This document shows positions 1,580 through 57,078 of a stretch of DNA of 64,000 nucleotides, in pieces (positions within the stretch are counted from its first letter, which is position 1; the number at the start of each line of letters is the position of its first letter). A program made the translations under genes and the position numbers. The DNA is from Clostridia bacterium (lineage in GTDB: Bacteria; Bacillota; Clostridia; Oscillospirales; CAG-272), in contig JAFQPI010000005.1 in NCBI GenBank assembly GCA_017411805.1, forward strand, positions 1,538-65,537, read 5' to 3'. The notes under the pieces are model-generated. The model worked only from the letters and a program-made list of their open reading frames with translations. It made no database searches and had not been told where the DNA came from.

Positions 1580-1596
1580 GAGAGGAGTAGAGAATA

Positions 1597-2283
1597 ATGG
1601 GAAAGAAATATCAGGACAGCATTAAGCTTTTAGAAAAGGCTAAGCTTTATGATCCGGCAGAAGCTCTCGCTCTCGTTTGCCAGACTTCAAAAGCAAAGTT
1701 CGATGAAACAATCGAAATTCACGTAAGACTCGGCGTTGACTCCCGTCACGCAGACCAGCAGGTAAGAGGCGCCGTTGTACTTCCTAACGGTACAGGTAAG
1801 ACTGTAAGAACTCTCGTATTTGCAAGAGGCGATTTTGCAAAGGCAGCAGAGGAAGCAGGAGCTGATTTTGTTGGCGCAGAAGAGTACGTACAGAAGATCC
1901 AGACCGAAAACTGGTTTGACTTCGACCTTATCATCGCAACACCCGATATGATGGGCGTTATCGGCCGTCTCGGTAAGGTTCTCGGTCCTAAGGGACTTAT
2001 GCCTTCCCCCAAGAACGGTACCGTTACTCCCGACGTTGCCCGTGCAGTTAACGAGGCAAAGGCAGGTAAGATCGAGTACCGTCTTGACAAGACCAACATC
2101 ATCCACTGCCCTCTCGGCAAGGTATCCTTCGGCGAGCAGAAGCTCCAGGAGAACTTTGACGCTCTCGTTGGCGCAGTTATCAAGGCTAAGCCCGCTGCTG
2201 CTAAGGGTCAGTACATCAAGAGCTGCGTAATCGCATCCACGATGGGCCCCGGCGTTAAGATCAACCAGGCTAAGCTTGGCTAA
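1597..2283 (+). CDS. rplA: 50S ribosomal protein L1
   Basis: 228 aa with [23 protein letters not shown] and [16 protein letters not shown] motifs. Follows rplK. Confidence 0.95.
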
Positions 2284-2285
2284 TA

Positions 2286-2313
2286 AAAAAAGACCGCTTC
2301 GGCGGTCTTTTTT
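2286..2313 (+). terminator. intrinsic terminator after rplA
   Basis: AGACCGC-TTCG-GCGGTCT hairpin (2291-2308) followed by a T-run. Confidence 0.8.
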
Positions 2314-2373
2314 AGTGTAAAGTGAAAAGTGTAAAGTGAAAAGTGAAGGTAGCTTTTCGCTTTGGCGAAAAGC
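2314..2373 (+). repeat. heptad-array/hairpin element A
   Basis: AGTG at 2314, 2321, 2328, 2335 and 2342 (strict 7-nt phase: AGTGTAA AGTGAAA AGTGTAA AGTGAAA AGTGAAG), then GTA and the hairpin GCTTTTCGC-TTTG-GCGAAAAGC (2352-2373). Confidence 0.8.
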
Positions 2374-2397
2374 AATTCTTAATTTTTCTTAATAATT

Positions 2398-2427
2398 GTT
2401 GACCTTATTGTATAATTATGATATCAT
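2398..2427 (+). promoter_or_regulatory. possible sigma-A promoter for the 2476 gene
   Basis: TTGACC (2398-2403), 18-nt spacer, TGaTATCAT extended -10 (2419-2427). Confidence 0.3.
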
Positions 2428-2475
2428 ATATAAGATTGGACTATCGACAATAATATACAAAAGGAGACTTCTTTC

Positions 2476-3207
2476 ATGCTCTGGGGGACTTTCGGCATCA
2501 TACATATTCTCAGTCTTGTTTTCGCCCTTCTGCTCAATGTCGCACTTTACTTTGTTCTTAAACGCTGTCCGCAAAAAATTCAGATCATCGTCCTCGGCAT
2601 CCTTTCCTTCTCGGGAATTGCCGCCATCATCTACAATCTCGTCGCGTGGGATTCCCCGCTCGAGTATCTCCCGCTTCATCTCTGCTCGCTCAACGCCCTG
2701 ATCCTTCCCTTCGCGGTCTTCACGAGGAACAAGGTGGTAGCTAACCTTACCCTGCTTTGGTCTCTCGGCGCGGCAGTTGCGCTTATCCTCAATCACGCAG
2801 TCGCCTCGGCAGAGGTCCTTGACCCCGTCTTCTGCTTCTACTTTTTCCCGCACGTTTTTGAGATGAGCATTCCCATCCTGCTTTTCAAGCTCGGACTTTG
2901 CAAGCTTGACGCAAAGTGTATCATTTCGACCGTCGGTATCACCGGCGGAGTATATACCGTGATCCACTTTATCAACGTCGCGCTCAACAATTACTGCATC
3001 GAGAACAATATCCTCGATTGGGCAGGCAACGTGATCCAGGTCAACTATATGTACTCGATCACTCCGGACAACCCCGTGCTCGTCCTCTTCCACAATCTCA
3101 TTCCACATTCCTTCTGGTATATGCTCCCCGCGGTACTTATCGCCGCCGTCTACCTCGGCGCGATCTACGGCATCGCGGCACTTGTGATGAAAAAGAAAGC
3201 CAATTAA
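2476..3207 (+). CDS. polytopic integral membrane protein (TIGR02206/YwaF-like)
   Basis: 243 aa with about 7 hydrophobic helices. The LPLHLCS motif is reminiscent of the YwaF/TIGR02206 family. AAGGAGA RBS at 2460-2466. Confidence 0.55.
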   Translation: MLWGTFGIIHILSLVFALLLNVALYFVLKRCPQKIQIIVLGILSFSGIAAIIYNLVAWDSPLEYLPLHLCSLNALILPFAVFTRNKVVANLTLLWSLGAAVALILNHAVASAEVLDPVFCFYFFPHVFEMSIPILLFKLGLCKLDAKCIISTVGITGGVYTVIHFINVALNNYCIENNILDWAGNVIQVNYMYSITPDNPVLVLFHNLIPHSFWYMLPAVLIAAVYLGAIYGIAALVMKKKAN

Positions 3208-14194: not shown

Positions 14195-15646
14195 ATGAAG
14201 ATTAAAGAATGGTTCGCCTCGCACAAGCCGACGAAGCGCCGCCTCATCCAGCTCTACGCCGCCCTTCTCTTCAACGCGAATCTCAAGGGTTTTGGCAACG
14301 GACGAATTTATCAGGGTCCCTTAAAGGGCATCTGCGCGCCCGGCATAAACTGTTATTCCTGCCCCGCGGCATCAGCGGCTTGTCCCCTCGGCTCTCTCCA
14401 GAATGCGCTGACCGCGGCAAACAAGTCGATCCCCTACTATATGGTCGGAATCATCCTCCTTTACGCGCTCCTTTTCGGACGCTGGATCTGCGGTTTTCTC
14501 TGCCCCTTCGGGCTCATCCAGGATCTTCTTTATAAGATCAAGACCCCGAAGATCAAGAAAAATCGACTGACAAAGATCCTCTCGAAGCTGAAATACGTCA
14601 TCCTTGCCGTTTTCGTCTTCGCACTGCCGCTGATCTACGCCTTCCGCGAGTTCGTCCTTCCCGCATTCTGCAAGTACATATGCCCCGCGGGAACGCTCGA
14701 GGGCGCGGTCGGACTTCTCTCCAACGAAAACAACGAGAACATGTTCTCGATGCTCGGCCCGCTCTTCACCTGGAAATTCTTCCTCCTTGTCGTATTCGTG
14801 ACAGGCGCGGTCTTCATTTACCGCTTTTTCTGCCGTTTCTTCTGCCCGCTCGGACTGATCTACGGTCTCTTCAACAAGATCTCCTTTGTCGGAGTGTCTG
14901 TTGACAAGGCAAAATGCACCGAATGCGGACGCTGTTACTCCGCCTGCAAGATGGATATCTCGAAGGTCGGCGACGTCGAGTGCATCCAATGCGGCGACTG
15001 TATTTCCGAGTGTCCGACCTCCGCGATCTACCGCCGAGGCCCGCGTTTCCTGATCGATCCGGGTACCCCCAACGGCAAGATCGGCGAGGAGACCGCAAAG
15101 AAAAACAGGATCGGCAAGCGAATCGTCGCCGCGATCCTCGCAGTTATTCTTGTCGGCGCGCTCGTTTACTACAACTTCATCGACAAGGCTCCCGAGGCAG
15201 TTACGGGTGCCGAGGTCGGACAAATGTGCCCCTCCGAGGAGATCCCGCTTTACAATTCGGATCAGACCTTCGGCTTCAGCGTGACCACGACCAACAGCAA
15301 AGTCAGAGTTATCAACTTCTGGGGCACCTGGTGCGGCCCCTGCGTTGCCGAGCTTCCGCACTTTGACGAGCTTGCAAGCGAGTATGAGGGAGAAGCCGTG
15401 TTTATCGCGATCCACTCGAGCTACGCGGGAGATACTGCGCTTGATTTCATCCTTGAAAACTACCCCGACTCGAAGATGCTCTTCGGTCAGGGCGACGAGA
15501 CAGACTCCTATTTCTACGCACTCGGCGGCGGCGACACCTGGCCGATGACGGTCGTTCTTGACGCTGACGGAATCATCACCGCGCGCTTTGACGGCTCTGT
15601 TGATTACGAAACGCTGAAGAGTGCTATCGAAGAAGCACTTAAATAA
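14195..15646 (+). CDS. NapH/MauN-like membrane polyferredoxin fused to a TlpA/ResA-like thioredoxin domain
   Basis: 483 aa. CYSCPAASAACP motif, TM helices, two 4Fe-4S motifs (CTECGRCYSAC and CIQCGDCISECP), a further TM helix, then WGTWCGPCVAELP (WCGPC at 15329-15343). AAGGAGG RBS. Confidence 0.7.
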   Translation: MKIKEWFASHKPTKRRLIQLYAALLFNANLKGFGNGRIYQGPLKGICAPGINCYSCPAASAACPLGSLQNALTAANKSIPYYMVGIILLYALLFGRWICGFLCPFGLIQDLLYKIKTPKIKKNRLTKILSKLKYVILAVFVFALPLIYAFREFVLPAFCKYICPAGTLEGAVGLLSNENNENMFSMLGPLFTWKFFLLVVFVTGAVFIYRFFCRFFCPLGLIYGLFNKISFVGVSVDKAKCTECGRCYSACKMDISKVGDVECIQCGDCISECPTSAIYRRGPRFLIDPGTPNGKIGEETAKKNRIGKRIVAAILAVILVGALVYYNFIDKAPEAVTGAEVGQMCPSEEIPLYNSDQTFGFSVTTTNSKVRVINFWGTWCGPCVAELPHFDELASEYEGEAVFIAIHSSYAGDTALDFILENYPDSKMLFGQGDETDSYFYALGGGDTWPMTVVLDADGIITARFDGSVDYETLKSAIEEALK

Positions 15647-15652
15647 AACAAT

Positions 15653-15747
15653 CCGCCAAAGGCGGAGTTAATGTTGCGCAAAGCGCAAGTTAATATCGCG
15701 CGATGCGCGAGTTAATGTTCGCCCGATGGGCGAAGTTAAAGGTTAAT
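15653..15747 (+). repeat. heptad/hairpin element E: tandem array of four hairpin units sharing an AGTTAAT linker
   Basis: TCCGCC-AAA-GGCGG AGTTAAT | GTTGCGC-AAA-GCGCA AGTTAAT | ATCGCGC-GAT-GCGCG AGTTAAT | GTTCGCCC-GAT-GGGCGA AGTTAAA GGTTAA. AGTT at 15667, 15689, 15711 and 15735 (period 22-24). Stem sequences differ but pairing is kept. Confidence 0.8.
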
Positions 15748-15782
15748 TTCCGAGCCGAAAGGCTCGGAAATTTTCATTTTTA
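15748..15782 (+). terminator. intrinsic terminator (terminal hairpin of element E)
   Basis: TTTCCGAGCC-GAAA-GGCTCGGAAA followed by TTTTCATTTTT. Confidence 0.75.
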
Positions 15783-16116
15783 TTGAAGCGGAAAAGTTTT
15801 CGTCCACCTTTTTCAAAAGGTGGCAGAGCTCGAGACAGAGTCTCGTCTTAATGCAAAAGCTTCAGCTTTTGCTACTGTGCTTCAAAATTCTGAAGCTCCG
15901 CTTCTGAATTTTGGATAGAGTCAATCCTTCCCGAATGTAGGGAAGGATTGCGCTCTATCACCCCCCACCCTGCACCCGTCTCGCTGCGGCTCGGTCACGC
16001 CGCGGGTCTGACGGTCCCCCGGACCGTCATTCAATACCGCGTCGCCGCTTCGCTACCCGTAAACCGGGGAGATTGCGCGCGGGTCACTTTCCGCCGCGTG
16101 CTTGATTATCGGATTC

Positions 16117-16146
16117 TAAAAACCCCGCCCAAACCGGCGGGGTTAA
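16117..16146 (-). terminator. intrinsic terminator of the sigma/anti-sigma pair 2
   Basis: AACCCCGCC ... GGCGGGGTT hairpin (16122-16145). The preceding A-run gives a T-run on the minus strand. Confidence 0.7.
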
Positions 16147-16150
16147 TTGA

Positions 16151-17868: not shown

Positions 17869-17927
17869 AATTTCCGCTGCGCGGAAATTCTCCTTAACTT
17901 TCCACTTTACACTTTACACTTTACACT
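17869..17927 (-). repeat. heptad-array/hairpin element B
   Basis: Minus strand reads AGTGTAA AGTGTAA AGTGTAA AGTGGAA AGTTAAG GAG, then the hairpin AATTTCCGC-GCA-GCGGAAATT. CACT lies on the plus strand at 17903, 17910, 17917 and 17924. Confidence 0.8.
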
Positions 17928-17960
17928 TAAAAAGACCCATCGTCGACGATGGGTCTTTTT
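17928..17960 (-). terminator. intrinsic terminator after 17963..18403
   Basis: AGACCCATCGTCGACGATGGGTCT palindrome flanked by A- and T-runs. Confidence 0.8.
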
Positions 17961-17962
17961 AA

Positions 17963-18403
17963 TTATGCAGCTTTCTCAAGCTCGATCGTCATTTCCTTGG
18001 AACCGTTGGAGAAATAATATTCCTCTGCGGTATCAACGACATATCCCTCAACTGCTGCCGCGATGAGAACGTGGAAATCGCTCGTATCGAAATCAAAGGT
18101 AACGGTTCCGTCCGCGCCGGTTCCCTTGGGCATTCTGCATCCCTTGGAATCGCACATCTGGATCTGTACGCCTGCGATCGGGTTGCCGTCCTTGTCGGTC
18201 ACGGTAACCTTGTATCCGGTAGCCGCGGGCTCGGTAGCCTCGTCGGTACCGTCAGCTTTGGTTGCGTCCTCGGTGGTCTCACCGCTCGAGGTAGGTGCTT
18301 CGGTATTGTTATCGGGTTCTGTTGTAACTTCTCCGCTCTCGTTGCAGGCAACAAAGGACATGCAAAGGCAGAGCGCGAGAAGGATCATGATCAGCTTCTT
18401 CAT
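17963..18403 (-). CDS. small lipoprotein with Ig/carboxypeptidase-regulatory-like domain
   Basis: 146 aa with lipobox FVAC and a Thr/Glu-rich linker. YKVTVTDKDGNPIAGVQIQM...GADGTVTF resembles prealbumin-like fold repeats. Confidence 0.5.
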   Translation of the reverse strand: MKKLIMILLALCLCMSFVACNESGEVTTEPDNNTEAPTSSGETTEDATKADGTDEATEPAATGYKVTVTDKDGNPIAGVQIQMCDSKGCRMPKGTGADGTVTFDFDTSDFHVLIAAAVEGYVVDTAEEYYFSNGSKEMTIELEKAA

Positions 18404-18600: not shown

Positions 18601-18709
18601 TGTTCAGTCGCGCTAAATTTATATATTATATATCTCTTTAATTAAATTGTCTTTATTTAATATATTATATATTTTTATCGTTAAACAATTCGCGAAAGGC
18701 AAAGGAAAA

Positions 18710-21700
18710 ATGAAGAAACAGAAAAAAACCAAGATCCTGTCAGCTATGCTTGCAATGCTGTTGCTGACAACAATGATCGTCGGAGTCTGCGTTAATTCCG
18801 CCGGCGACGCCGCCGCGGAAGCTTACATCGGCCTCTTCGACGGAAAGGTCTTCAACGACATATCGAAATACTTCTCGAATGCCGTTGTGGCACTTCCCGA
18901 CAAGGTCAAGGACGACCAGATCATCTCACTCATCATTGAATGCGACGCAGAAAGTCTGCTTGACGCATACGAGGCGTCCGACAAAACGATGAGTATCTCC
19001 GAGTTTGCGCTCTCCGATGAAGCCGCAGCTCTCCGCGAGAACATCTCGAAGGAGAACGCAAAGCTTATCGAAAAGCTCAACCGCGCCGGCTACACCTATG
19101 AGCTCGGAGTTAATTACGACACAGTCATCGCCGGATTTGAGCTTCTCATCACCGCGCGTGATTTTGAGGACGTATGCAAAACTCTCGGAAGAAAGACCAA
19201 CGTCATCGTAGGCGACGTCTACGAAAAAACCGAGACTCAGCTGGTCGAGAACACCGTAAACGTTCAGGACACCGGTATCTTCAACAGCATCGGTTGCGGA
19301 TACGACGGCTCGGGTACAGTTGTTGCGGTCCTCGATACCGGTCTTGACTATTATCACACCGCCTTCTCGACCGACAATTTCACGTCGAATACGCTCGGTA
19401 TGACCTTTGACGACGTCAAGGGCTTCATCGGAGATACCGTGGCATCCGACAAGCAGTCGGGTCTGACCGCCTCCGATGTTTACATAAGCGAGAAGGTACC
19501 CTACGGATTTGACTACGCTGACGGCGATGCCGACGTATTCCCCATCCAGAGCGACCACGGCACGCACGTTGCCGGCGTTATCGCGGGTAAGGACGACGTT
19601 ATCACGGGTGTTGCGCCCAACGCGCAGCTCGCCATCATGAAGATCTTCTCGGATATCGTTGATACCGCGCGTACCTCCTGGATACTTGCGGCACTTGAGG
19701 ACTGCGTAGTTCTCGAGGTTGACGTTATCAACATGTCGATCGGTACCTCCGCGGGCTTCTCGCGTGAGAATGACAAAGAGCAGATCACCGGCGTTTACGA
19801 CCGTATCCGCGCTCTCGGAATCAGCATGGTAGTTGCGGCTTCCAACAGCTTCACCTCAACCTACGGCTCCGAGAAAAACGGTAACCTCGGTCTGACCTCC
19901 AACCCCGATAACGGTACCGTCGGATCTCCCTCTACGTATAAGGGCGCGCTCTCGGTTGCATCCATCAACGGCGCAAAGACCCCCTATATGCTCTACGGCG
20001 ACACCATTATCTACTATATTGAAGCTACCGACCGCGTTTCCGAGGAAAAAGAATTCGTTGCCGACCTATTGCCGGACGGAACGAATGAGGCGGAATACGA
20101 ATTCGTCACCATTCCCGGTGCGGGACGCTCCGCCGACTATACAGGCATCGACGTCAAGGGCAAGATAGTCCTTGTCAGCCGCGGATCGACCACCTTCGAG
20201 GAAAAGGCGATCGTAGCCGAGCAAAAGGGCGCGGCAGGTATCATCATCTACAACAACGTAGCCGGTGATATCAAGATGACCGTCGGCGACGCGAAGCTCG
20301 CGGTATGCTCGATAAGCCAGGACGAGGGCGAAATGCTCGCAGCCGCAGGCACGGGAACTATCAAGATCTCCAAGAGCCAGACCTCGGGTCCCTTCATGTC
20401 CGACTTCTCCTCCTGGGGTCCCTCCCCCGACCTCGAGATCAAGCCCGAGATCACCGCGCACGGCGGAATGATCCTCTCCTCGGTACCCGGTCAGGACTAT
20501 GACCGAATCTCGGGTACCTCGATGGCATGCCCCAACGTATCGGGTCTCGTTGCCATCCTCCGTCAGTACGTCCGCGAGAACTTCCCCGCGATATCTGATA
20601 ACAACATCGAGATCGCAGCTACGGTCAACCGCCTCCTGATGTCCACCGCCGATATCGTAAAGAACAAGAACGGTCTGCCCTACGCTGTCAGAAAGCAGGG
20701 CGCGGGTCTTGCAAATCTTACCAACGCTATCGCAACGGATGCCTACATTCTTACATATGACCGCCGCGACGGCTCCATCATGGACAAGTCCAAGATCGAG
20801 CTCGGCGACGACCCCGCAAAGAACGGCGTATACACTCTCAAATTCTCTGTTTATAATTTCGGTTCTTCTTCTCTTTCCTATGATATATCTGCATGTGTAA
20901 TGACCGAGGGTATCAGCGATACCAAGACGAATGACGGTGAATACACCGTAAACGAGCAGGGATACCTCCTCGAAAACGGCACGACCGTCGAGATCACAAA
21001 CGTATCGAACGGCACTCTCTCGGGCACCAATCTCACGGTTGCCGCAGGCGCGACAGCCGACGTTACGGTAACCGTCACCATCTCGGATGCCGATAAGGAA
21101 TATCTGAACAGATTTGAAAACGGCATGTACGTTGAGGGCTTTGTTAAGCTGACCGCTACCTCGGGTACAGAGGTTAGCCTCTCCGCTCCCTTCCTTGCCT
21201 TCTACGGCGACTGGACGGTAGCTCCCCTCTTCGACATCGACTACTTTGAAACCAACGCAGACGAGATCGACGATTCCATCGACCTCGCCGACAAGACTCT
21301 TCCCGATGCGTACGCGACCCGCCCCGTCGGCTCGCTCTACGACGACTACGTATCCTTCCTCGGCGGATACTACTTCGAGCAGGATCCCTCCTCGAAGCTC
21401 ATTGCCGCAGACCGTAAATATATCTCTATCTCGAACGTCGAAGGCACCGTCCACTCGCTTGAATACGTCTGGGGCGGACTTCTCAGAAGTGCCGAGCGCA
21501 TCGAGATCACCATCACGAACGACGCTACGGGCGAGGTTGTCTTCTCGAAGACCGAATACGACGTCCGTAAGTCCTACGGCGACGGCGGATCGATCTACCC
21601 CGCAAATATCAAGGTAGGCTTCGACGCCATCGACGAGGAGCTTGAAAACAACTCGAAGTTCACCTGCCTAATCAAGGGCTACCTTGATTACGGAGACGGC

Positions 21701-24700
21701 GGCGAGGCAAAGAACCTCAACAACACCTTCGAATTCCCCATCTACGTCGATTTCCAGGCTCCCGCCGTAACCGACGTTGAGTTCTACACCGAGTACGACC
21801 GCTCGGAGGAAAAGACCCGCCTCTTCGCAAAGGTTGCCGTCTACGACAACCACTATTCGATGGGCGCACAGTTCGGATACGTTGCAAACGAAGGTGAAAA
21901 CGGCTTCGTATTCCACGCATTCGACAAGTACATCACCTCGATCTACTCGGATTACAACTCCACCTCCTACGTTGTATACGAGCTGACCGATTACGTTCAG
22001 CGCATCAAGGAAAACGCAAGTAACAGAAATACCTTCACTGTCGTAACCTACGACTATGCGCTCAACACCGCAACCTACGAGATCTCGCTTCCCGACGAGT
22101 ACGTTGACATGTACTTTGAGGAGGAGAGCATTAAGCTCAGCCCCAACGAGACCTACGAGCTCAAGCCCATCCTCTACCCCGGAAGCGAATGGAGCGAGCT
22201 GCTTGAGTACTACTCGACCAACATGAACGTTGCAAGAGTTGTGGGCAACAGAATAATTGCTATCGAGCCCGGCGTTACCAGAATCGTAGCGCGCGACCCG
22301 GTAACCAAGAAGACGGCGCATCTCTCACTGACCGTCCTCGGCGAGGGCGAGGAGGGCTATCAGAAATTCGATAAGCCCGTTACGGACAATTTCGTCCTCA
22401 CCGGTTTCTATACCAACAAGGCATATTACCAGCTTGATGCCACCGAGCGCGATATCGGAAGCACGGGCGACGAGATGAAGTTCGTCGGCGAGAATTATTT
22501 CCTCTCGCTCTTCCCCTCCGAATCGGTAACGCTCCGCTATATCTTCGACGCTTACTTCCCCGATGAATATACGGTTCAGTTCGAATCGAGCAACGAAAAC
22601 ATCGTAACCGTTGATGAGCACGGACAGATCACGGCAGCCAACGAGGGCTTTGCCTCGATCTCTGTCAACGTAATGCGCATCGAAAAGGTAACGGGCGAGA
22701 ACGGCAAGACCGAAAACGTCTACCATTCCACCTATTACTCCAAGTCGATCTCGGTTGAGGTCAAGGAGCCCTGGATCACCTCGGGTCCCTCGCTCTCGCA
22801 CTACTTCGGACTTGGCGGCACGGTAACCTTCCCCTCCACCCTCGCGGTAACCGAGATCGGTCAGTTCGCATTCTCGAACTTCGACTACATCCCCAAGACA
22901 GAGGACGACGAGATCTCCGAGGAGGTCCCCGAGACCACCAAGATGTGGTACCTCGGCGACGACACCATCACCAAGGTCGTAGTTCCCGAGGGCGTTGAAA
23001 AGATCGGTCGCTTCGCGTTCGCAAATCTGACCGCGCTCCAGGAGGTCGTTCTTCCCTCCACTCTCAAGATCATTGACTACGGAGCATTCTACGGATGTAC
23101 CTCGCTTGTAACCGTTTCCGGCATCGAGCACGTCAAGTTCATCAACGAGGCAGCATTCTTCGGATGCAACCTTTCGGGCGCACTTGAGCTTACCGAGGCA
23201 GTTGCTCTCGGCGAATACGCCTTTGCAAACAACAAGAACCTCAAGAACCTCACCCTCTCCGAAAAGACCAAGTCTGTTGCCTCCTACGCCTTCAGCGGAT
23301 GCGAAACTCTCAAGAAGGTCAACATCGAGGCTGACAAGATCAAGCTCGGTCTGAGCGTATTCTCGGGATGCAAGGCTCTTACCGAGATCTCCGTCAACGC
23401 CGCGGTTATCCCCGCGGGAAGCTTCTCTGACTGTACCAAGCTCAAGAAGGTGACCATCGGCGCGGACGTTGCCGTAATCGGCGAATACGCATTCAAGAAC
23501 ACCTCGGTCGAATCCTTCACGGTCGCTGAAGGCAACGCGACCTTCAAGCCCCAGAACGGCAAGCCCTACCTCCTCTCTGAGGACGGCAAGACCATCCTCC
23601 TCTGCGCTCCCACGGCAGAGACGCTTGAGCTCCCCGCATCGGTTACAACGGTCGGCGACGGTGCTTTTTCGGGCAACCCGAACCTTATCTCCGTCAAGAT
23701 GCCCGGCGTTACCAAGCTCGGCAACTACGCTTTCGCTGATTGCGAAGCTCTCGCAAGCGTTGAGTTCGGCAAGCTGACACACATCGGCGACTACGCCTTC
23801 TCGAACACCGTACTCACCGCAACTCCCGCGCTCGGCTCGGTAAGCTACATCGGCGCGAATGCATTCAGAAATACCCTCATCACATCGGTTGAGATCGCAA
23901 ACTCCACCGAGATCGGTAATAACGCCTTCCGCGGCTGTGAAAAGCTTGAAAGCGTCAAGATCGGCAACAACGTAACGATCGGCAGCTACGCATTTGCCCT
24001 TGATATGACCGACAACTGGACCTACGGCTACTACAGACTCCCGGACAACAACCGCGTTTATTACTACATTTATACCTCGCCCCTCCATTCGCTCACGATC
24101 GGCGAGAACGTCAAGATCGGCAGAGGCGCATTCCACGGCGCATCCGAGCTTACCTCGGTCACCCTCGGAAAGAACGCGGAGATCGGAGACCACGCATTCT
24201 ACAATGCCTCCATGCTCAAGGATATCGATCTCTCGAAGGTCGTCTCCATCGGTGAGCTTGCCTTCTCGGGCGACGAGACCTATGAATACGTGGACAGCAG
24301 CTTCTCCCTCATCGCTACCGATGAGAACGGCCTCTACCGCCGCCATTACCACACTCCCCTGCTTGAGAGCATCGATCTCTCCTCCGCGGAAAAGATCGGC
24401 ATGGGCGCATTCTCCTACGTCACAACTCTCAGATCGGTAAAGCTCGGCTCCAAGCTTACGGAGATCGCGGATGCCGCATTCTATAAGGCAACCGCGCTTA
24501 CCGACATCAGCTTTGCGGGAATCGAAAAGATCGGTGAGAGCGCATTCGGCGAGACAGCTCTCAAGTCGCTTGACCTCTCGAAGGTCAAGGAGATCGGCGA
24601 AAGCGCGTTCGCATACGTCGAGGCCCTCGAGTCTGTGATCTTTGCGGACGGCGTTAAGATCGGCAAGGGCGCGTTCGGCTACACGACAAAGCTTACAAAG

Positions 24701-25924
24701 CTTGAAAATGACAAAATGATCGCAAGCGTTGACGATTACGCCTTCGCTTACTCGGCTATCACCTCCATCAATCTTTCGAATGCAGAATACGTCGGTACTC
24801 ACGCCTTCATCAAGGAAGAGGTCACTCCCTTCCGCGTGACTCTCGGCGAAAAGCTCACCGATATTGGCGAGAACCCCTTCGCAATGTGCAACCTTCCCGT
24901 GTTCTCAACCATCGTCGTAACAGAATTCAACGGCAAGCAGTATGAGAACACCTCCTACGACTTCGAGCTTTCCGAGAACGTGCTCGTCATCGCCGGCTCG
25001 CTCTACCGCCGCGTACCGAACGGTCTTGAGCTCATCACCTATGCGGGCGAGGGCAAGAACGCCGTCATCGCGGATGGAACAGTACGTCTTTCGGCGATGT
25101 CCTTCGCGGGAAGCGACGTCAAGAGCGTTGAGCTGCCAAAGGAGCTGAACGCTATCGGACACAAGGCGTTCTACGGCTGTGAAAAGCTCACTCTCGTTAC
25201 CTTCAAGAGCTACGACGCCCCCATCCTCGAGGAGGAATTCGATTACAACTACTATGCAACCTTCGAGAACATCCCCGCAACGGGCGACTACGAGTTCGTT
25301 GATCAGAACGGCGGACAGCTCATCTATTCGGGCATCGAGGTCGTTCCCTACTTCATGTGGAACGCCGCTGACGCACCCTACGTCATCTACTACGGCGCAA
25401 ACTTCATCGACTACATCGGTCACGTCGAAAACAAGATCACCATGGTCTACCCCTCGAACGGTAAGAATTACGATTCCTTCATCCTCGGTCAGTACTTCGA
25501 CACCGTCATCCTCGGTGCTGCGGCTGCCGATGATATCACTCTCCACGCGATCGACCTTATCGATAAGCTTCCCGAAACGGTTTCCCTTGAGGATCGTGCA
25601 GCGGTTGAAGCAGCACGCGCGGCTTACGACGCTATCTCGACCCTCGAGCAGCGAGCTCTCGTAACCAACTACTCGAAGCTCACTGAGGCTGAGGACAGAA
25701 TCGAAAAGCTTCTCTCTCTTGAGAATCCCGAGGAAACCACTCCTCCCGCAGACGAGGAGGATCCCAAGCTCGACATAACCACCATAATCATCATTATCCT
25801 TACATCCGTCCTTGCCGCAGCGGTTATCACCATCATCATCATTGATTGTGTCCGCCTCGGAAAGAAGAAGGAAAACTCCGCAGAGGAAGGAGACAAAAAC
25901 GACGAAAATGATAAGAACGAATAA
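18710..25924 (+). CDS. giant cell-surface subtilisin-family (S8) serine protease with PA insert, Ig-like domains, BspA-type leucine-rich repeats and C-terminal membrane anchor
   Basis: 2404 aa from MKKQKKTKIL (signal peptide). Catalytic motifs VAVLDTGLD, SDHGTHVAGVIAG and SGTSMACPNVSG. PA-like GKIVLVSRGSTTFEEKA..AAGIIIYNN. Big_2-like segments. A long array of IGxxAFxxC/T LRR_5-type repeats. C-terminal TM helix plus a charged tail. Confidence 0.85.
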   Translation: MKKQKKTKILSAMLAMLLLTTMIVGVCVNSAGDAAAEAYIGLFDGKVFNDISKYFSNAVVALPDKVKDDQIISLIIECDAESLLDAYEASDKTMSISEFALSDEAAALRENISKENAKLIEKLNRAGYTYELGVNYDTVIAGFELLITARDFEDVCKTLGRKTNVIVGDVYEKTETQLVENTVNVQDTGIFNSIGCGYDGSGTVVAVLDTGLDYYHTAFSTDNFTSNTLGMTFDDVKGFIGDTVASDKQSGLTASDVYISEKVPYGFDYADGDADVFPIQSDHGTHVAGVIAGKDDVITGVAPNAQLAIMKIFSDIVDTARTSWILAALEDCVVLEVDVINMSIGTSAGFSRENDKEQITGVYDRIRALGISMVVAASNSFTSTYGSEKNGNLGLTSNPDNGTVGSPSTYKGALSVASINGAKTPYMLYGDTIIYYIEATDRVSEEKEFVADLLPDGTNEAEYEFVTIPGAGRSADYTGIDVKGKIVLVSRGSTTFEEKAIVAEQKGAAGIIIYNNVAGDIKMTVGDAKLAVCSISQDEGEMLAAAGTGTIKISKSQTSGPFMSDFSSWGPSPDLEIKPEITAHGGMILSSVPGQDYDRISGTSMACPNVSGLVAILRQYVRENFPAISDNNIEIAATVNRLLMSTADIVKNKNGLPYAVRKQGAGLANLTNAIATDAYILTYDRRDGSIMDKSKIELGDDPAKNGVYTLKFSVYNFGSSSLSYDISACVMTEGISDTKTNDGEYTVNEQGYLLENGTTVEITNVSNGTLSGTNLTVAAGATADVTVTVTISDADKEYLNRFENGMYVEGFVKLTATSGTEVSLSAPFLAFYGDWTVAPLFDIDYFETNADEIDDSIDLADKTLPDAYATRPVGSLYDDYVSFLGGYYFEQDPSSKLIAADRKYISISNVEGTVHSLEYVWGGLLRSAERIEITITNDATGEVVFSKTEYDVRKSYGDGGSIYPANIKVGFDAIDEELENNSKFTCLIKGYLDYGDGGEAKNLNNTFEFPIYVDFQAPAVTDVEFYTEYDRSEEKTRLFAKVAVYDNHYSMGAQFGYVANEGENGFVFHAFDKYITSIYSDYNSTSYVVYELTDYVQRIKENASNRNTFTVVTYDYALNTATYEISLPDEYVDMYFEEESIKLSPNETYELKPILYPGSEWSELLEYYSTNMNVARVVGNRIIAIEPGVTRIVARDPVTKKTAHLSLTVLGEGEEGYQKFDKPVTDNFVLTGFYTNKAYYQLDATERDIGSTGDEMKFVGENYFLSLFPSESVTLRYIFDAYFPDEYTVQFESSNENIVTVDEHGQITAANEGFASISVNVMRIEKVTGENGKTENVYHSTYYSKSISVEVKEPWITSGPSLSHYFGLGGTVTFPSTLAVTEIGQFAFSNFDYIPKTEDDEISEEVPETTKMWYLGDDTITKVVVPEGVEKIGRFAFANLTALQEVVLPSTLKIIDYGAFYGCTSLVTVSGIEHVKFINEAAFFGCNLSGALELTEAVALGEYAFANNKNLKNLTLSEKTKSVASYAFSGCETLKKVNIEADKIKLGLSVFSGCKALTEISVNAAVIPAGSFSDCTKLKKVTIGADVAVIGEYAFKNTSVESFTVAEGNATFKPQNGKPYLLSEDGKTILLCAPTAETLELPASVTTVGDGAFSGNPNLISVKMPGVTKLGNYAFADCEALASVEFGKLTHIGDYAFSNTVLTATPALGSVSYIGANAFRNTLITSVEIANSTEIGNNAFRGCEKLESVKIGNNVTIGSYAFALDMTDNWTYGYYRLPDNNRVYYYIYTSPLHSLTIGENVKIGRGAFHGASELTSVTLGKNAEIGDHAFYNASMLKDIDLSKVVSIGELAFSGDETYEYVDSSFSLIATDENGLYRRHYHTPLLESIDLSSAEKIGMGAFSYVTTLRSVKLGSKLTEIADAAFYKATALTDISFAGIEKIGESAFGETALKSLDLSKVKEIGESAFAYVEALESVIFADGVKIGKGAFGYTTKLTKLENDKMIASVDDYAFAYSAITSINLSNAEYVGTHAFIKEEVTPFRVTLGEKLTDIGENPFAMCNLPVFSTIVVTEFNGKQYENTSYDFELSENVLVIAGSLYRRVPNGLELITYAGEGKNAVIADGTVRLSAMSFAGSDVKSVELPKELNAIGHKAFYGCEKLTLVTFKSYDAPILEEEFDYNYYATFENIPATGDYEFVDQNGGQLIYSGIEVVPYFMWNAADAPYVIYYGANFIDYIGHVENKITMVYPSNGKNYDSFILGQYFDTVILGAAAADDITLHAIDLIDKLPETVSLEDRAAVEAARAAYDAISTLEQRALVTNYSKLTEAEDRIEKLLSLENPEETTPPADEEDPKLDITTIIIIILTSVLAAAVITIIIIDCVRLGKKKENSAEEGDKNDENDKNE

Positions 25925-43290: not shown

Positions 43291-43326
43291 AGTAATCAAT
43301 AAAACTAACATTTTTTGGAGGAAAAA

Positions 43327-45429
43327 ATGAAACGGTCATTCGGATTTTTACTTACTCTGTGCATGATCCTTCTCTCGCTCACTCTCGTTTTCGCATCCTG
43401 CGATGAGGCCGCAGAGGATACTACACCCGATGAGATCACAACCGCTGAAGAAACCACATCAGAAAATACAACCGAAGCTCCCCATACTCACGCATGGAGC
43501 GATTGGAGCGAGACAACAGCCGCTACCTGCTCGGCGGAAGGTCTCAATGAGCGAACCTGCGCCTGCGGCGAGAAGGAAACTCAGTCCATCCCCGCTCTCG
43601 GACACACCGAGGTCGTTGATGCAGCAGTTGCTCCCACCTGCACCTCGGAAGGCAAAACCGAAGGAAAGCATTGCTCTGTCTGCAACGCGGTTACCCTGCC
43701 CCAGAACGCTATAGCTGCTCTCGGACACACCGAGGTCGTTGACGTGGCAGTTGCTCCCACCTGCACCTCGGAAGGCAAAACCGCAGGAAAGCATTGCTCT
43801 GTCTGCAACGCGGTTACCCTACCCCAGAACGCTATAGCTGCACTCGGACATACCGAGGTCGTTGATGCCGCTGTTCCCGCAACCTGCACCACGCCGGGAC
43901 TTACAGAGGGCAAACATTGTTCTGTCTGCAACGTAGATACCATACCCCAGAACGCTATAGCTGCTCTCGGACACACCGAGGTCGTTGATGCCGCGGTTCC
44001 CGCGACTTGCACCTCCACCGGACTTACAGAGGGCAAACATTGCTCTGTCTGCAACGTAGTACTAAAGGAACAGAAAGAAACTCCCATATCGGACCATAAT
44101 TTTTCCGATTGGAAGGTTGGAGTAGCCGAGACCTGCACCACCGACGGAAGCAGGATCCGGGAATGTGTCTGCGGCGAAAAGCTCGAGCGCGGAGTATTTG
44201 CGGCGCATCATTACGTTTATAACGGCACGACGGGAAAATGCTCGGGCTGCGGCGACGTTATCACTTACACCGACGGTCTGATCTTCACGCTTTCGGGTGA
44301 CCAAAGCTATTATATCTGGACAGATATAACATTCCATAATGACACCACAGTAACCGAAATTATTGTTCCTCCCATGTACAACGGCCTGCCCGTAAAGGAC
44401 ATTAAAGTGGATGCCCGTGGACTTGAAAATTTAAAAAGAATAGTATTGCCTGACGGAATCGAATCAATAACAAAATGTTGGATGCAATTTAGTCCCTTGT
44501 TTTCAACGATCAACTTCCCCGACGGTCTCAAAACAATTGGTAAGGGAGCTTTTTCGATATCAGCCAGCGAAACCGCAAATCTGACTGATATTCGGCTCCC
44601 CAGTACGCTCACTTCTATCAACCGATCCTTCTTGCAGGGTCATTCCTACCCGGATAACAGATATCATAAGTATATTTCGGTCGCATACGGCAATCCGGTT
44701 TATCACTCGCAAGATAACTGTCTGATAGAAACACAAACAAAAACACTGATCATGGGTACCGCTCTTTCGGTGATCCCCACCGACGGAAGCGTAACCGCAA
44801 TCGGCCCGTGTGCTTTTATGGCTATCCCGGAGCTCACAAACGTAGTGATCCCCGATGCAATAACTCATATCGAAAAATGGGCGTTTTATTGCTGCAACAA
44901 TCTTGAAAGCATTCATTTTGGTGCGGGATTTACTCCTGGTGAAAATTTCCCGCTTGTTTTTGGACAGTTTTCAAGACACATTAAGCTGAATCAAATCACC
45001 GTTTCTGAAAACAATCCCGTGGTTTATGCGGTAAATAATTGCCTTATCGAAAAAGCATCCAAAACTTTGCTGTTAGGATGTAACACAAGTATAATTCCGT
45101 CAGACGGAAGCGTTGAAATAATCGGTAATCGGGCATTTGCAACTTGCACCTTCAAAACAATAAATATTCCCATAACAGTTAAACAAATAGACGATGAAGC
45201 GTTTATGTTATCGGCTCTTGCTGCAGGAAATGCGCTTGTCGGTGGTAGCGGATTTACTTATGACGGTATAATTTACTACGAAGGCAGGATTGAAGACTGG
45301 GAAAAGATCAACATTCACAGATACGCTTTTGCTCATGAGGTCGGACAGGAGCATCTCATTCCCGTAATTTGCTCAAACGGAGAAACAGGCGTTGAAAGCA
45401 ATTTCAAATTAGGATATAAACCCTTTTAA
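43327..45429 (+). CDS. surface lipoprotein with tandem Cys-rich 41-aa modules and BspA-type leucine-rich repeats
   Basis: 700 aa from MKRSFGFLLTL (GGAGGA RBS) with lipobox FASC. Four near-identical ALGHTEVVDAAV.PTCT..G.TEGKHCSVCN repeats flanked by two diverged copies. C-terminal LRR_5-like IGxxAF repeats. Confidence 0.7.
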   Translation: MKRSFGFLLTLCMILLSLTLVFASCDEAAEDTTPDEITTAEETTSENTTEAPHTHAWSDWSETTAATCSAEGLNERTCACGEKETQSIPALGHTEVVDAAVAPTCTSEGKTEGKHCSVCNAVTLPQNAIAALGHTEVVDVAVAPTCTSEGKTAGKHCSVCNAVTLPQNAIAALGHTEVVDAAVPATCTTPGLTEGKHCSVCNVDTIPQNAIAALGHTEVVDAAVPATCTSTGLTEGKHCSVCNVVLKEQKETPISDHNFSDWKVGVAETCTTDGSRIRECVCGEKLERGVFAAHHYVYNGTTGKCSGCGDVITYTDGLIFTLSGDQSYYIWTDITFHNDTTVTEIIVPPMYNGLPVKDIKVDARGLENLKRIVLPDGIESITKCWMQFSPLFSTINFPDGLKTIGKGAFSISASETANLTDIRLPSTLTSINRSFLQGHSYPDNRYHKYISVAYGNPVYHSQDNCLIETQTKTLIMGTALSVIPTDGSVTAIGPCAFMAIPELTNVVIPDAITHIEKWAFYCCNNLESIHFGAGFTPGENFPLVFGQFSRHIKLNQITVSENNPVVYAVNNCLIEKASKTLLLGCNTSIIPSDGSVEIIGNRAFATCTFKTINIPITVKQIDDEAFMLSALAAGNALVGGSGFTYDGIIYYEGRIEDWEKINIHRYAFAHEVGQEHLIPVICSNGETGVESNFKLGYKPF
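43594..44065 (+). repeat. in-frame 123-bp tandem repeat (about 3.8 copies)
   Basis: Unit starts (GCTCTCGG/GCACTCGG) at 43594, 43717, 43840 and 43963. Very high nucleotide identity between units. Confidence 0.9.
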
Positions 45430-55180: not shown

Positions 55181-55789
55181 ATGGAAAAATCACGCGGAAT
55201 CATCATCCTTGACCCCGGACACGGACAGTTCGGCAACCCACATACCACCCGCGCGGGCTTCTACGAGGGCACGCAGAATTTCATCCTCTCCTCCTTCCTC
55301 AAGGCAGAGCTTGAGTCTCTCGGCTTCGACGTTCGAATGACGAGAAACAAGGTCGAGGACGACCCCGGGCTCGTTGAGCGCGGATCTATGTCGGGCGAGC
55401 TCGGAGCAGTTATGTTCCTTTCGATCCACTCGAATGCACCCGGCGGCAATCCTTCCGACGAGAGATACCCCAAGGTTCGAGGTGCTGAGACCTTCTATTC
55501 GGTTTCCGACTGCGAGGGCAATGCGCCTATCGCGCGCGACCTGACCGATGCCGTCGTCCGTACGATGGGCACTGAGGACCGCGGAATCAAGACCCGCCGC
55601 TACCCCGATAACGAGTCGATCGACTACTACGGAGTTCTCCGCTCTGCCGCCGCATCGGGCTGCAAGCGCGCCTTCCTCATCGAGCACGGCTTCCATACCA
55701 ACCCCGAGGACTCGGCGTTCTTACAGGATTCCGATTGCCTCGCGCGTTTGGCGAAGGCGGAGGCTGAGGTTATTGATAAGTGGTTCTGA
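55181..55789 (+). CDS. N-acetylmuramoyl-L-alanine amidase (Amidase_3 family)
   Basis: 202 aa. IILDPGHG, SIHSNA and IEHGFHTN zinc/catalytic motifs. Confidence 0.8.
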   Translation: MEKSRGIIILDPGHGQFGNPHTTRAGFYEGTQNFILSSFLKAELESLGFDVRMTRNKVEDDPGLVERGSMSGELGAVMFLSIHSNAPGGNPSDERYPKVRGAETFYSVSDCEGNAPIARDLTDAVVRTMGTEDRGIKTRRYPDNESIDYYGVLRSAAASGCKRAFLIEHGFHTNPEDSAFLQDSDCLARLAKAEAEVIDKWF

Positions 55790-55805: not shown

Positions 55806-55869
55806 AGTGGCTAGTGGCTAGTGACTAGTGACTAGTGAATGGTAATTTTCCTCACGATGTTCGGAAAAT
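55806..55869 (+). repeat. heptad-array/hairpin element C
   Basis: AGTG at 55806, 55813, 55820, 55827 and 55834 (AGTGGCT x2, AGTGACT x2, AGTGAAT), then GGTA and the hairpin ATTTTCC-TCACGATGTTC-GGAAAAT (55845-55869). Confidence 0.85.
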
Positions 55870-55934
55870 ATTCCTATTGATAATTCAATTCGGTGTTGAT
55901 ATACCAATGTTGAGTAAAATAATTCAATATCACA

Positions 55935-55982
55935 AAAATCTCGGATATTATGAAGTTTATGCTCCATAATATCCGAGTTTTT
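55935..55982. terminator. bidirectional intrinsic terminator between amidase and trxB
   Basis: CTCGGATATTATG ... CATAATATCCGAG (55940-55977) flanked by AAAAA and TTTTTT. Confidence 0.8.
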
Positions 55983-55991
55983 TATAAAAAC

Positions 55992-56064
55992 AATTTTCGA
56001 ACGAAGTGAGAAAATTTCTACCTTCCACTAGCCACTAGTCACTAGCCACTAGCCACTAGTCACT
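55992..56064 (-). repeat. heptad-array/hairpin element D (inverted partner of C)
   Basis: Minus strand reads AGTGACT AGTGGCT AGTGGCT AGTGACT AGTGGCT AGTGGAA GGTAGA, then the hairpin AATTTTC-TCACTTCGTTC-GAAAATT. CACT lies on the plus strand at 56026, 56033, 56040, 56047, 56054 and 56061. Confidence 0.85.
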
Positions 56065-56101: not shown

Positions 56102-57025
56102 TTATTTCGACAAAGAATCCACGTACTTACAAGCCGCGAGAGCCGCGCAAGCACCGTCGGAGGTTGCGGTTGAGATCTGGCGGACGCCCTTCTTGCGGCA
56201 GTCGCCCGCGGCAAAGATTCCTCCGCAGCCCATATCGCCGTCGTCCGACGCGATCAGATAGCCATAGGGATCGATCGGCGCGAGATCCTTGAAGATCTCG
56301 GTTGCCGGTGCCATTCCAACCGCAAGGAAAACGCCGTCGAGCTTAATCTTACTGAGACCCCCCGTCTCGGTATTTCTGACCACAATACCGGTAAGATTTC
56401 CGCCTTCGGAAACGTATTCCTCAACGACCGTGTTGTAAATGATCTCTACGTTCTCCATCGACTTCAGCTCTGCCGCCGTATTCGCCTCACAGGTAAGATC
56501 GGCGAGATTCTGAACGATCGTCAGCTTTCTTGCTGTCTTCGCAAGCAGAAGCGCCTCGACAGCCGCCGAGTTTCCGCCGCCGATAACGCCAACCTCACCG
56601 CCGGCATAGAAAGCGCCGTCGCAAACCGCGCAGAAAGAAATGCCGTGACCGACAAGCTCCTCCTCGCCCGCAAGACCTAAGCGGCGATGATGCGATCCGA
56701 CCGCTACGATCACGCTTTTTGCTTTGAAATCGCCGTCGGGAGTCTCGAGTGTATAGTATTTTCCATACTTATCATATGATATCGCGGTGACCTCCGCACA
56801 TTCGATCTCCGCGCCGAGTCCGAGTGCCTGCTCGACCATCTTGTCGGCAAGCTCGTTGCCCGAGATCTCGGAAAATCCGGGGTAATTCTCGATCTTCGGC
56901 GAAAAAGTCATCTGTCCGCCAAAAGTCGATTTTTCAATTACCGTCACGCTCTTTCCCGCACGAACCGCGTAAATTGCCGCAGTCAGACCCGCAGGTCCCG
57001 CTCCGATTATAATAATATCTTTCAT
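56102..57025 (-). CDS. trxB: thioredoxin-disulfide reductase
   Basis: 307 aa. IIIIGAGPAGLTAA FAD motif, redox-active CAVCDG, and second dinucleotide motif VGVIGGGNSA. Confidence 0.92.
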   Translation of the reverse strand: MKDIIIIGAGPAGLTAAIYAVRAGKSVTVIEKSTFGGQMTFSPKIENYPGFSEISGNELADKMVEQALGLGAEIECAEVTAISYDKYGKYYTLETPDGDFKAKSVIVAVGSHHRRLGLAGEEELVGHGISFCAVCDGAFYAGGEVGVIGGGNSAAVEALLLAKTARKLTIVQNLADLTCEANTAAELKSMENVEIIYNTVVEEYVSEGGNLTGIVVRNTETGGLSKIKLDGVFLAVGMAPATEIFKDLAPIDPYGYLIASDDGDMGCGGIFAAGDCRKKGVRQISTATSDGACAALAACKYVDSLSK

Positions 57026-57078
57026 AATTTTCCTCTTAACGAAGATCGGCTGCCAAAAGCAGCCGATCTTTTATTGAT

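Follow-up and report, generated by a model that had tools for sequence, protein, structure and literature searches.

Mirror-image heptad arrays around a bidirectional terminator in a Clostridia bacterium as probable members of a dispersed family of 3′-flank repeats

The convergent genes for an N-acetylmuramoyl-L-alanine amidase and a thioredoxin-reductase-like protein (trxB) of an uncultured Clostridia bacterium from the ruminant gut (Oscillospirales, CAG-272; assembly GCA_017411805.1, contig JAFQPI010000005.1) are separated by an intergenic region in which two elements, C and D, face each other across a bidirectional intrinsic terminator. Each element is composed of a tandem array of 7-nucleotide (nt) units with an AGTG core, followed by a hairpin. 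The region occupies positions 55806-56064 of the 64,000-nt stretch that was analyzed (contig positions 1,538 to 65,537), which is referred to here as the window. The features of the locus, including the two open reading frames (ORFs), are as follows.

55181-55789, plus strand: N-acetylmuramoyl-L-alanine amidase gene (Amidase_3, Pfam E = 1.6e-24; ORF list), with a TGA stop at 55787-55789
55806-55840, plus strand: array C, five heptads, AGTGGCT AGTGGCT AGTGACT AGTGACT AGTGAAT (sequence, Tandem Repeats Finder (TRF), pattern count)
55844-55871, plus strand: hairpin C, AATTTTCC / 11-nt loop TCACGATGTTC / GGAAAAT(A)T (sequence, fold, covariance model R1 at 29.9 bits, E = 1.8e-4)
55872-55933, plus strand: AT-rich spacer of the C side, 62 nt, with the direct repeat ATAATTCAAT at 55880 and 55919
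55934-55983, both strands: bidirectional intrinsic terminator, predicted and folded, consisting of an A-run, the stem CTCGGATATTATGAAG / CTCCATAATATCCGAG and T6
55992-56022, minus strand: hairpin D and its tail, reading GGTAG AAATTTTC TCACTTCGTTC GAAAATT (fold; R1 at 22.9 bits, E = 0.0054)
56064-56023, minus strand: array D, six heptads, AGTGACT AGTGGCT AGTGGCT AGTGACT AGTGGCT AGTGGAA (sequence, TRF, pattern count)
56102-57025, minus strand: thioredoxin-reductase-like gene trxB (Pfam Pyr_redox_2, E = 1.1e-42)

Both arrays were detected by TRF. Array C begins 16 nt past the amidase stop, as read from the sequence, and its last unit merges into a conserved tail, AGTGAATGGTA, with GGTA following the array; array D is separated by 37 nt from the trxB stop (56102-56104), and hairpin D reads AATTTTC / GAACGAAGTGA / GAAAATT on the plus strand (55992-56016). 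The terminator, which was predicted by a terminator search and folds in both the C-side and the D-side transcripts, has a 16-bp stem (arms 55940-55955 and 55962-55977) with T6 on the plus strand and ATTTTT on the minus strand, as expected of an intrinsic terminator acting in both directions. The layout given in the original prediction, namely five heptads with a hairpin, six heptads with a hairpin, and a terminator between them, was thus confirmed. Each element was also correctly described as oriented with its own upstream gene and placed between stop codon and terminator, a rule that holds for essentially all of the ~21 arrays found in the clade.

The inverted-repeat arms (55806-55844 and 56019-56057) span 39 nt and are 92% complementary, and the hairpin loops, claimed to be near reverse complements, are identical at 8 of 11 positions once one of them is reverse-complemented. 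The view of the 259-bp region as one long imperfect palindrome is correct for the arms, but the symmetry is lopsided, the spacer measuring ~62 nt between the terminator and element C and ~8 nt between the terminator and element D. Likewise, UAG does recur every 7 nt in C and D, but other copies in the window have AAG, and the constant feature of the family is AGT(G/T) followed by a purine. In contrast, the claim that the two convergent 3′ untranslated regions (UTRs) are extensively complementary had to be given up: because the arrays are inverted in the DNA, transcripts of opposite strands carry the same sequence, and both UTRs contain AGUG-sense arrays, and the two are complementary only at the shared terminator (~45 nt). 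Pairing of one array with the other requires a single transcript reading through the terminator. The predicted folding energy of such a read-through transcript is -123.9 kcal/mol (z = -11.8), while the separate UTRs give -59.3 kcal/mol (C; z = -5.9) and -62.1 kcal/mol (D; z = -6.3); in addition, arrays C and D are partly self-complementary via CUAG.

The C-side spacer is present as a block in paralogous and orthologous cassettes (see below), and since these copies retain its ATAATTYAAT direct repeat, it may be more than filler. The same spacer contains a promoter-like sequence (TTGATA-16-AATAAT, a 10/12 match, at 55896-55923), which is aimed at the terminator ~15 nt downstream.

To place the locus in a comparative context, relatives were obtained by a RecG-based scan of species genomes, yielding 13 metagenome-assembled genomes (MAGs) from the gut of goats, cattle and yaks that carry the label Eubacteriales or Clostridia bacterium (RecG identity, 80-93%; genomes and contigs are designated by L numbers). 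The gene order recA-recX-recG-amidase >< trxB-nrdD is kept in 12 of these 13 genomes, and the trxB protein was also found on gut-metagenome contigs with a 100% identical spacer. Between amidase and trxB, the genomes L117, L118, L125, L127 and L129 carry two mirror-image arrays that enclose the terminator core CTCGGATAT..ATATCCGAG. Elsewhere the spacer consists of a bare terminator of ~45 nt (L124 and L128), of unrelated hairpin-rich filler (L121 and L126), or of an additional small Cys-rich ORF (L120, L122 and L123), with L120 retaining the D-side array only. This inserted ORF, located at 6375-6860 in L120, 11036-11450 in L122 and 6965-7390 in L123, encodes several CxxC pairs. Comparison with relatives had been named beforehand as the check that could turn against the role at this particular locus implied by the original prediction, and it did so: the structure is absent or replaced in relatives that have the same gene pair, so it is not a conserved feature of that pair, and the same module occurs at unrelated loci.

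The wider occurrence of the module was established with a covariance model, R1, comprising two heptads, the tail and the hairpin, which was run over the whole window with filters off. R1 matched five members and these alone: A (53 bits), B (51.4), E (34.4), C (29.9) and D (22.9), with no further match in the window below E = 0.01 except reverse-strand echoes of these palindromes. Independently of the model, the pattern AGTGN3AGTGN3AGTG was found 13 times in the window versus 0.11 expected, a count reached by 0 of 100 shuffles. The three members outside the amidase/trxB region are as follows.

2288-2373, plus strand: member A, with the rplA terminator at 2288-2313, five heptads AGTGTAA/AGTGAAA at 2314-2348, the tail GTA, and the hairpin GCTTTTCGC-TTTG-GCGAAAAGC at 2352-2373
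15652-15775, plus strand: member E, with four GC mini-hairpins, AGTTAATRTT linkers, then AGTTAAAGGTTA and the hairpin ATTTCCGAGCC-GAAA-GGCTCGGAAAT
17869-17960, minus strand: member B, behind the terminator of a lipoprotein gene (17963-18403, minus strand), with heptads at 17927-17893 and the hairpin AATTTCCGC-GCA-GCGGAAATT at 17889-17869

The heptads of A directly abut the rplA terminator. Member B, whose heptads are AGTGTAA (three copies), AGTGGAA and AGTTAAG, lies upstream of an extracytoplasmic function (ECF)-type sigma gene. Member E begins 5 nt past the stop of ORF 14195-15646; it keeps the usual tail and hairpin, with GC mini-hairpins of 22-nt period, whose stems differ and compensate within themselves, standing in for the heptads. 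Searching the whole window with Rfam 15 at the gathering threshold returned no family match, and the E-value mode gave only sub-threshold, terminator-driven noise.

Member A lies within a cluster (494-3207) in which nusG-rplK-rplA is followed by the terminator, the element and a gene for a TMEM164-family membrane protein, and rplJ-rplL, which usually come next, do not follow; Rfam detected no L10 leader. Beyond member E, a 500-nt gap between convergent genes is crowded with more hairpins (15790-16150; e.g., GTCCACCTTTTTCAAAAGGTGG). Metagenome contig depth over this interval is 5-10 times the single-copy depth, and L121 has similar sequence at ~4540, as does the filler that separates amidase from trxB in L121 and L126. 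These hairpins make up another dispersed repeat family, distinct from the heptad one.

The heptad family is multicopy in the relatives as well. Copies are found at several other gene ends in the related MAG species, and their density amounts to five in the 64-kb window and five each in the 21-22 kb available for L117 and L118. Furthermore, the whole cassette, consisting of array, hairpin, spacer, the terminator CTCGGATAT..ATATCCGAG, and the inverted hairpin and array, is found again between further pairs of convergent genes: its terminator core and arms are present at three loci in L118 and two in L117. The additional copies are located as follows.

L117, 20724-20966: cassette
L118, 19350-19610: cassette
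L118, 240-351: half-cassette

When 17 half-cassettes are aligned, CTCGGATAT/ATATCCGAG, the outer stem of the terminator, does not change, and changes within the inner stem are compensated. C/D and four further cassettes form inverted doublets with arms 120-170 nt apart around the terminator, while solo units without a partner arm (A, B, E and the copy upstream of trxB) are common. One arm, designated type 2 (AGTGRAC-AGTGGTT-AGTGGAC-AGTGGAC-AGAAAGATGCG), is nearly the same in paralogues and in different species, even though the spacers of these species have diverged. The mirror arrangement itself follows from the sense-orientation rule at convergent genes; the cassette is additionally a repeated unit in its own right, and it has been gained, lost or replaced among the relatives.

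Arrays vary in length by whole units. In a strain from metagenome run X4, 7 nt are missing from array C (at 55818) and 7 nt from array D (at 56040), and the nrdD-trxB junction exists as two alleles: a plain hairpin in the window and five relatives, and a different terminator followed by 1, 2, 2, 4, 4 or 5 heptads and the hairpin. These alleles (window 57026-57078 versus L117 13972-14091 and others) are unrelated in sequence, and the plain-hairpin allele has no T-run. In the heptad-bearing allele, the element lies only 27 nt before the trxB start, leaving no space for a conventional promoter, and inspection of this trxB-upstream copy for an internal promoter revealed no convincing -35/-10 elements. 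Being head-to-tail 7-nt units that change by whole copies, the arrays are heptanucleotide simple-sequence repeats (SSRs). Over the arrays, contig depth rises to 10-17 times the flanking depth, and the sequences on either side are many and different. In contigs of single-copy depth, the array of A leads into an E-type hairpin, which implies further mosaic paralogues in the same genome.

The unit consensus is YAGTGRN in arrays of 3-7 heptads. Of 105 units, which are defined by their fixed A, G and T, 95% have a purine at position 5 and 85% a pyrimidine at position 7. In 283 kb of sequence from the clade, no tetramers other than AGTG/CACT and its phase shifts show a threefold recurrence with a period of 7. 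Units are homogenized within genomes: both arrays of one genome have the same unit types, and the types differ between genomes, being AGTG[GA]CT in the window and L118, AGTGAAC-AGTGGTT-AGTGGAC-AGTGGAC in L117 and L127, AGTGGTC in L129, and AGTT[AG]CT in every unit of both arrays of L125. In other copies, the heptads have decayed (L119, 6458) or are missing (L121, 21337; L122, 98) while tail and hairpin persist. Thus, the array is an expandable appendage, and the constant part of the family is RAAGG(T)A joined to AAATTTYC(GC)-loop-(GC)GRAAATT.

With respect to transcription, 20 of the 21 clade arrays point in the same direction as the gene whose end lies upstream, and the single exception traces to an ORF mis-called by the crude ORF caller. 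Array starts lie 0-44 nt past a stop codon or where the T-run of a terminator ends; 13 arrays face a convergent gene and five a tandem gene. Since A, C and E are on the plus strand and B and D on the minus strand within 54 kb, orientation tracks transcription and not replication, and a replication-strand bias was rejected on this basis. The hairpins (21-28 nt) preserve their pairing by compensation. Pairing holds in 96% of cells across 21 distinct hairpins; at two inner pairs U-A and C-G replace each other, and the covariation score was reached by 0 of 500 shuffles. At the orthologous site upstream of trxB, TTTTCGC/GCGAAAA in L117, L118 and L125 corresponds to TTTTTGC/GCAAAAA in L122 and L129, a compensatory double change. 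The loop ranges from 3 to 14 nt across the family, which favors a folded single strand over a duplex site for a dimer.

Taken together, these observations are best accounted for if C and D belong to a dispersed, modular family of 3′-flank repeats resembling repetitive extragenic palindromic (REP) sequences and their composites (bacterial interspersed mosaic elements (BIMEs), as in E. coli, and REPINs) or miniature inverted-repeat transposable elements (MITEs), and if the family acts as RNA at mRNA 3′ ends; the probability of this combined reading is estimated at about 0.5. Its two parts differ in strength. That the elements form a dispersed repeat family rather than a device specific to this locus is very probable, whereas a role of the module at the RNA level of 3′ ends is put forward tentatively, at rather less than even odds. 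In the proposed mechanism, the heptad/hairpin unit would act in a strand-specific manner as RNA, with its hairpin and the terminator defining and protecting the mRNA 3′ end as REPs do. Upon read-through of the terminator, the second arm would pair with the first into a duplex of ~40 bp enclosing the terminator, which could halt antisense read-through into the convergent gene or expose such RNA to RNase III. Copies may have spread either by a transposase or by recombination and gene conversion.

Several results weigh against this interpretation. Six of the nine stem pairs are invariant in the 21 hairpins, so that the stem is mostly conserved rather than covarying, and recognition by a sequence-specific protein or recent common descent fits this conservation as well as folding does. 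Metatranscriptome contigs provided no coverage of the C/D region, only cross-mapping rplA contigs, and the RNA-level role is suggested by orientation and the compensatory change; one RNA contig (X23, 2315-2510) spans array A into the next gene at a depth of 3, which may reflect DNA carry-over or a unitig break at the repeat. Members A and B and the trxB-upstream copy sit past a terminator and would be included only in read-through RNA. A comparison of the two strands (G-U versus A-C) for 13 palindromic composites found in other metagenomes showed no consistent preference, which fits a DNA-level element equally well. As for mobility, the flanks of seven cassettes share no common direct repeat that would represent a target-site duplication, and an all-against-all BLAST comparison of 981 ORFs, some of them annotated, that lie no more than 1.5 kb from an array at viral and metagenome loci revealed no recurrent transposase-like ORF, recovering only phage structural proteins, ABC transporters and similar. 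Finally, the GTAG tag of classical REPs stands directly 5′ of the stem only in A, D, L118-C and L132, being replaced by GTAA, GGAA, GAGA or GTTA in C, B, E, L117, L125 and L129.

One alternative is a purely selfish origin, in which the arrays would be terminal inverted repeats or transposase-binding sites of a MITE- or REPIN-like element mobilized in trans (e.g., by an HUH/Y1 enzyme recognizing the hairpin and a nearby motif), the orientation would reflect tolerated insertions, and the host would derive no benefit. Such an element would have the 39-nt arms at 92%, the AT-rich non-coding interior and the 259-bp size seen here. It would also explain a cassette present at several loci, variably between species, and a type-2 arm that stays near-identical across paralogues and species despite diverged spacers. 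The GTAG next to the hairpin in the four copies listed above is REP-like (PMC3733652), and classical GTAG-tagged GC palindromes adjoin the module in metagenome loci L140 and L236. Even so, we consider this explanation unlikely, although more probable than the other alternatives. The tag is inconstant, no transposase-like family recurs near the arrays, and partnerless units are common, while the strict sense orientation and the orthologous compensatory change suggest selection on a folded, strand-specific product. The missing target-site duplication counts against mobility only weakly because HUH-type elements make none. Even further from the observations is the notion of chance or neutral microsatellites beside an ordinary terminator, which can hardly be right: a passage in PMC4679880, citing Mrazek 2007, describes heptanucleotides as the commonest long SSR class in many bacteria and as slippage-prone, and a variant differing by 7 nt was indeed seen here, but the 13 matches against 0.11 expected, the recurrence of the AGTG core alone, the constant tie to one conserved tail and hairpin, the orientation rule, and identical arms across species do not fit neutrality.

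Two further alternatives invoke a DNA- or RNA-binding protein. The array could be a single-stranded platform for an oligomeric RNA-binding protein that reads a 7-nt register, following the logic of HutP and TRAP, and that tunes folding of hairpin or terminator, read-through or stability at many operon ends; this comes closest to the idea behind the original prediction. TRAP and HutP sites contain regularly spaced NAG triplets, with UAG and a 4-nt spacing in the case of HutP. The unit here is likewise N-A-G plus 4 nt, with its A, G and T invariant and the biases at positions 5 and 7 noted above; C and D read (UAG-N4) five to six times, all copies are in the sense orientation with 3-7 units beside a hairpin, and phage contig L075 has sense AGTGAAG arrays between genes just before Shine-Dalgarno sequences or terminators. 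However, the array is the least constrained part of the module, since it decays (L119) or vanishes (L121, L122, and E in the window) while tail and hairpin are kept, and its core has changed from AGTG to AGTT throughout both L125 arrays. Arrays C and D are themselves partly self-complementary through CUAG, and array C lies 100 nt from its terminator, whereas the HutP site overlaps its terminator. The ten small ORFs of the window that were tested encode no RNA-binding or transposase domain and hence offer no candidate protein, and an RNA platform is rated as improbable. The double-stranded counterpart, also improbable and slightly more so, would comprise cooperative sites for a ribbon-helix-helix protein of the omega type (WATCACW) or a nucleoid protein, or for gyrase as proposed for BIMEs, serving as a topological or roadblock insulator at sites where supercoils accumulate from convergent transcription. 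Read on its complementary strand (AGTCACT, TTTCACT), the unit agrees with the omega heptad WATCACW at 5-6 of 7 positions; three units make 21 bp, or two helical turns; 13 of 20 arrays lie between convergent genes; and the palindromic composites lack strand preference. On the other hand, strict orientation to the upstream gene is unexpected for a simple duplex site, arms that keep pairing through a double change and a loop of 3-14 nt would not be tolerated by a dimeric duplex site, and the arrays are not upstream of promoters, unlike omega operators.

Other candidate explanations were rejected. Stop codons in all three frames occur in C, D, A and B and are not found in AGTGGAC or AGTGGAG arrays, so that they do not explain the arrays in general; pairing of the heptads with the 3′ end of 16S rRNA extends over only 3-6 nt and is inconsistent; and a phage-borne origin of the constant module would rest on a single weak match in IMG/VR. 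A more speculative proposal, which we regard as a long shot, is that the AGUG array and hairpin constitute the cis-element of a genome-wide post-transcriptional system, in which an oligomeric protein would read the 7-nt NAG-N4 register, as HutP does at a single operon, in RNA that is nascent or extends past the terminator at many operon ends, and would thereby determine how efficient the terminator or how stable the mRNA 3′ end is; the sense-oriented AGTG arrays between genes of many phage contigs and the AGT-containing heptamers of cyanobacteria and Beggiatoaceae would then work by the same mechanism. If so, bacterial heptamer repeats would gain a function.

Arrays of this kind extend beyond the clade. 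AGTG heptad arrays are abundant in IMG/VR contigs among the matches listed. One viral contig, L045 (IMGVR_UViG_3300047586_000106), carries 20 arrays in 10 kb, most of which form inverted pairs located between genes, and in L045, L073, L081, L036, L027 and L063 nearly every intergenic region is an inverted pair of AGTG arrays, e.g., (AGTGGTC)n .. (GACCACT)n; L063 shares AGTGGCT/AGTGACT units with the window. The tail and hairpin of R1 are rarer than the arrays, with 10 matches in 692 kb of array-bearing metagenome loci and one weak match in IMG/VR. A pattern scan of metagenomes revealed, beside other matches, compact palindromes from termite gut of the form (AGTGRAR)n - TTTTCGC..GCGAAAA - spacer - TTTCGGC..GCCGAAA - (CACTYTY)n. 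This family of ~140 nt (L146, L160, L161, L169, L173, L183, L191, L200, L218, L235 and L248), with flanks TTAACGGCAG/CTGCCGTTAA, often abuts a Shine-Dalgarno sequence and start codon and folds into a long stem with two inner hairpins. In L140 (5890-6060) and L236 (400-520), GTAG-tagged GC-rich palindromes (GTAGGGGC...GCCC) stand in tandem beside the AGTG-array/hairpin module in a BIME-like mosaic.

Two features elsewhere in the window were recorded in passing. ORF 43315-45429 contains 3.8 tandem copies of a 123-nt unit (87% matches) at 43594-44060, presumably a 41-residue Cys-containing protein repeat. A 2425-aa ORF at 18647-25924, with a signal peptide, subtilisin-type motifs (DTGLD, HGTHVAG, GTSMACP), leucine-rich-repeat-like stretches and a C-terminal membrane anchor, probably encodes a large surface protease/adhesin.

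REP-like repeats are well studied in Proteobacteria and hardly so in Clostridia, and the present family joins a slippage-prone heptad array to a conserved hairpin, combining a clean strand rule with a portable bidirectional-terminator cassette. If the cassette is a functional 3′-end module, it would show how gut anaerobes insulate convergent genes and could be used in engineering as a compact terminator/insulator. A selfish cassette, in contrast, would represent a new non-autonomous element. In practical terms, the arrays break metagenome assemblies, as seen from contig ends and depth spikes, and could be used as strain markers.

A literature search that included literal array sequences found no description of an AGTG heptad and hairpin family, and the closest comparisons are with systems that share some of its parts. 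HutP binds a single locus, at two sets of three NAG triplets spaced by 4 nt that overlap the 5′ arm of a terminator in a leader. The UAG plus 4-nt spacing of that site is the exact register of C and D; in contrast, the arrays considered here lie in 3′ flanks, 30-100 nt from the terminator, at many loci, with UAG not conserved and with some copies lacking the array, and a HutP gene is not known from this organism. The operators of omega (plasmid pSM19035 and other inc18 plasmids) consist of seven or more contiguous WATCACW heptads upstream of regulated promoters; the present arrays match at 5-6 of 7 positions on the complement, but they lie behind genes and obey a strand rule. Among MITEs, the Correia-type elements of Neisseria are intergenic, non-coding, 100-300 bp long and bounded by terminal inverted repeats; their hairpins are co-transcribed, may be cleaved by RNase III and can act as terminators or promoters. 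The 39-nt arms (92% complementary) and the 259-bp, non-coding, AT-rich body correspond to a MITE with terminal inverted repeats, but the flanks lack target-site duplications, the arms are variable tandem heptads, and half-elements occur alone.

Heptamer repeats are the commonest long simple repeats of bacteria and are little studied, without an established function (PMC4679880, PMC4692102, PMC2670836). For the short tandemly repeated repetitive (STRR) sequences of cyanobacteria, TAACTGA in Beggiatoaceae, Cyanobacteria and Bacteroidetes, and GGGAATC in Xanthomonas, roles in transcript stability or translation have been proposed (PMC2670836, PMC4679880, PMC4692102). These resemble the present family in their tandem intergenic 7-nt units, variable copy number and, sometimes, hairpin-forming inverted pairs, and by our own reading the published units CCCCAGT, CAACAGT and TCAGTTA also contain AGT. 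In contrast, the arrays described here are short (3-7 units), tied to a conserved tail and hairpin, and strictly in the sense orientation behind genes, whereas most TAACTGA repeats immediately precede a start codon and have the opposite strand sense.

The comparison with REPs extends furthest. REP elements are located downstream of ORFs, between convergent and unidirectional genes, form inverted dimers, and are presumed to be transcribed within 3′ UTRs (PMC3733652). The present family differs in that it includes a tandem heptad array, which REPs lack, and an AT-rich hairpin stem; GTAG occurs in some copies only, instead of a conserved GTAG/CGTC tag; the arms of its doublets are 120-170 nt apart and enclose a conserved terminator; and its hosts are Clostridia, a phylum that is not among the GTAG/CGTC REP hosts listed in PMC3733652. 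No REP-associated tyrosine transposase (RAYT) was identified in the ~280 kb of clade sequence covered, and no recurrent family was found near the arrays among ORFs that were annotated in part. As in REPs, BIMEs and REPINs, however, a short palindromic stem-loop with a linear motif on its 5′ side occurs in many dispersed intergenic copies, its high copy number and placement at gene ends are evident from copy density in the sequence covered, depth excess and orientation, and its units combine into modular mosaics and into inverted doublets that can fold into a larger hairpin.

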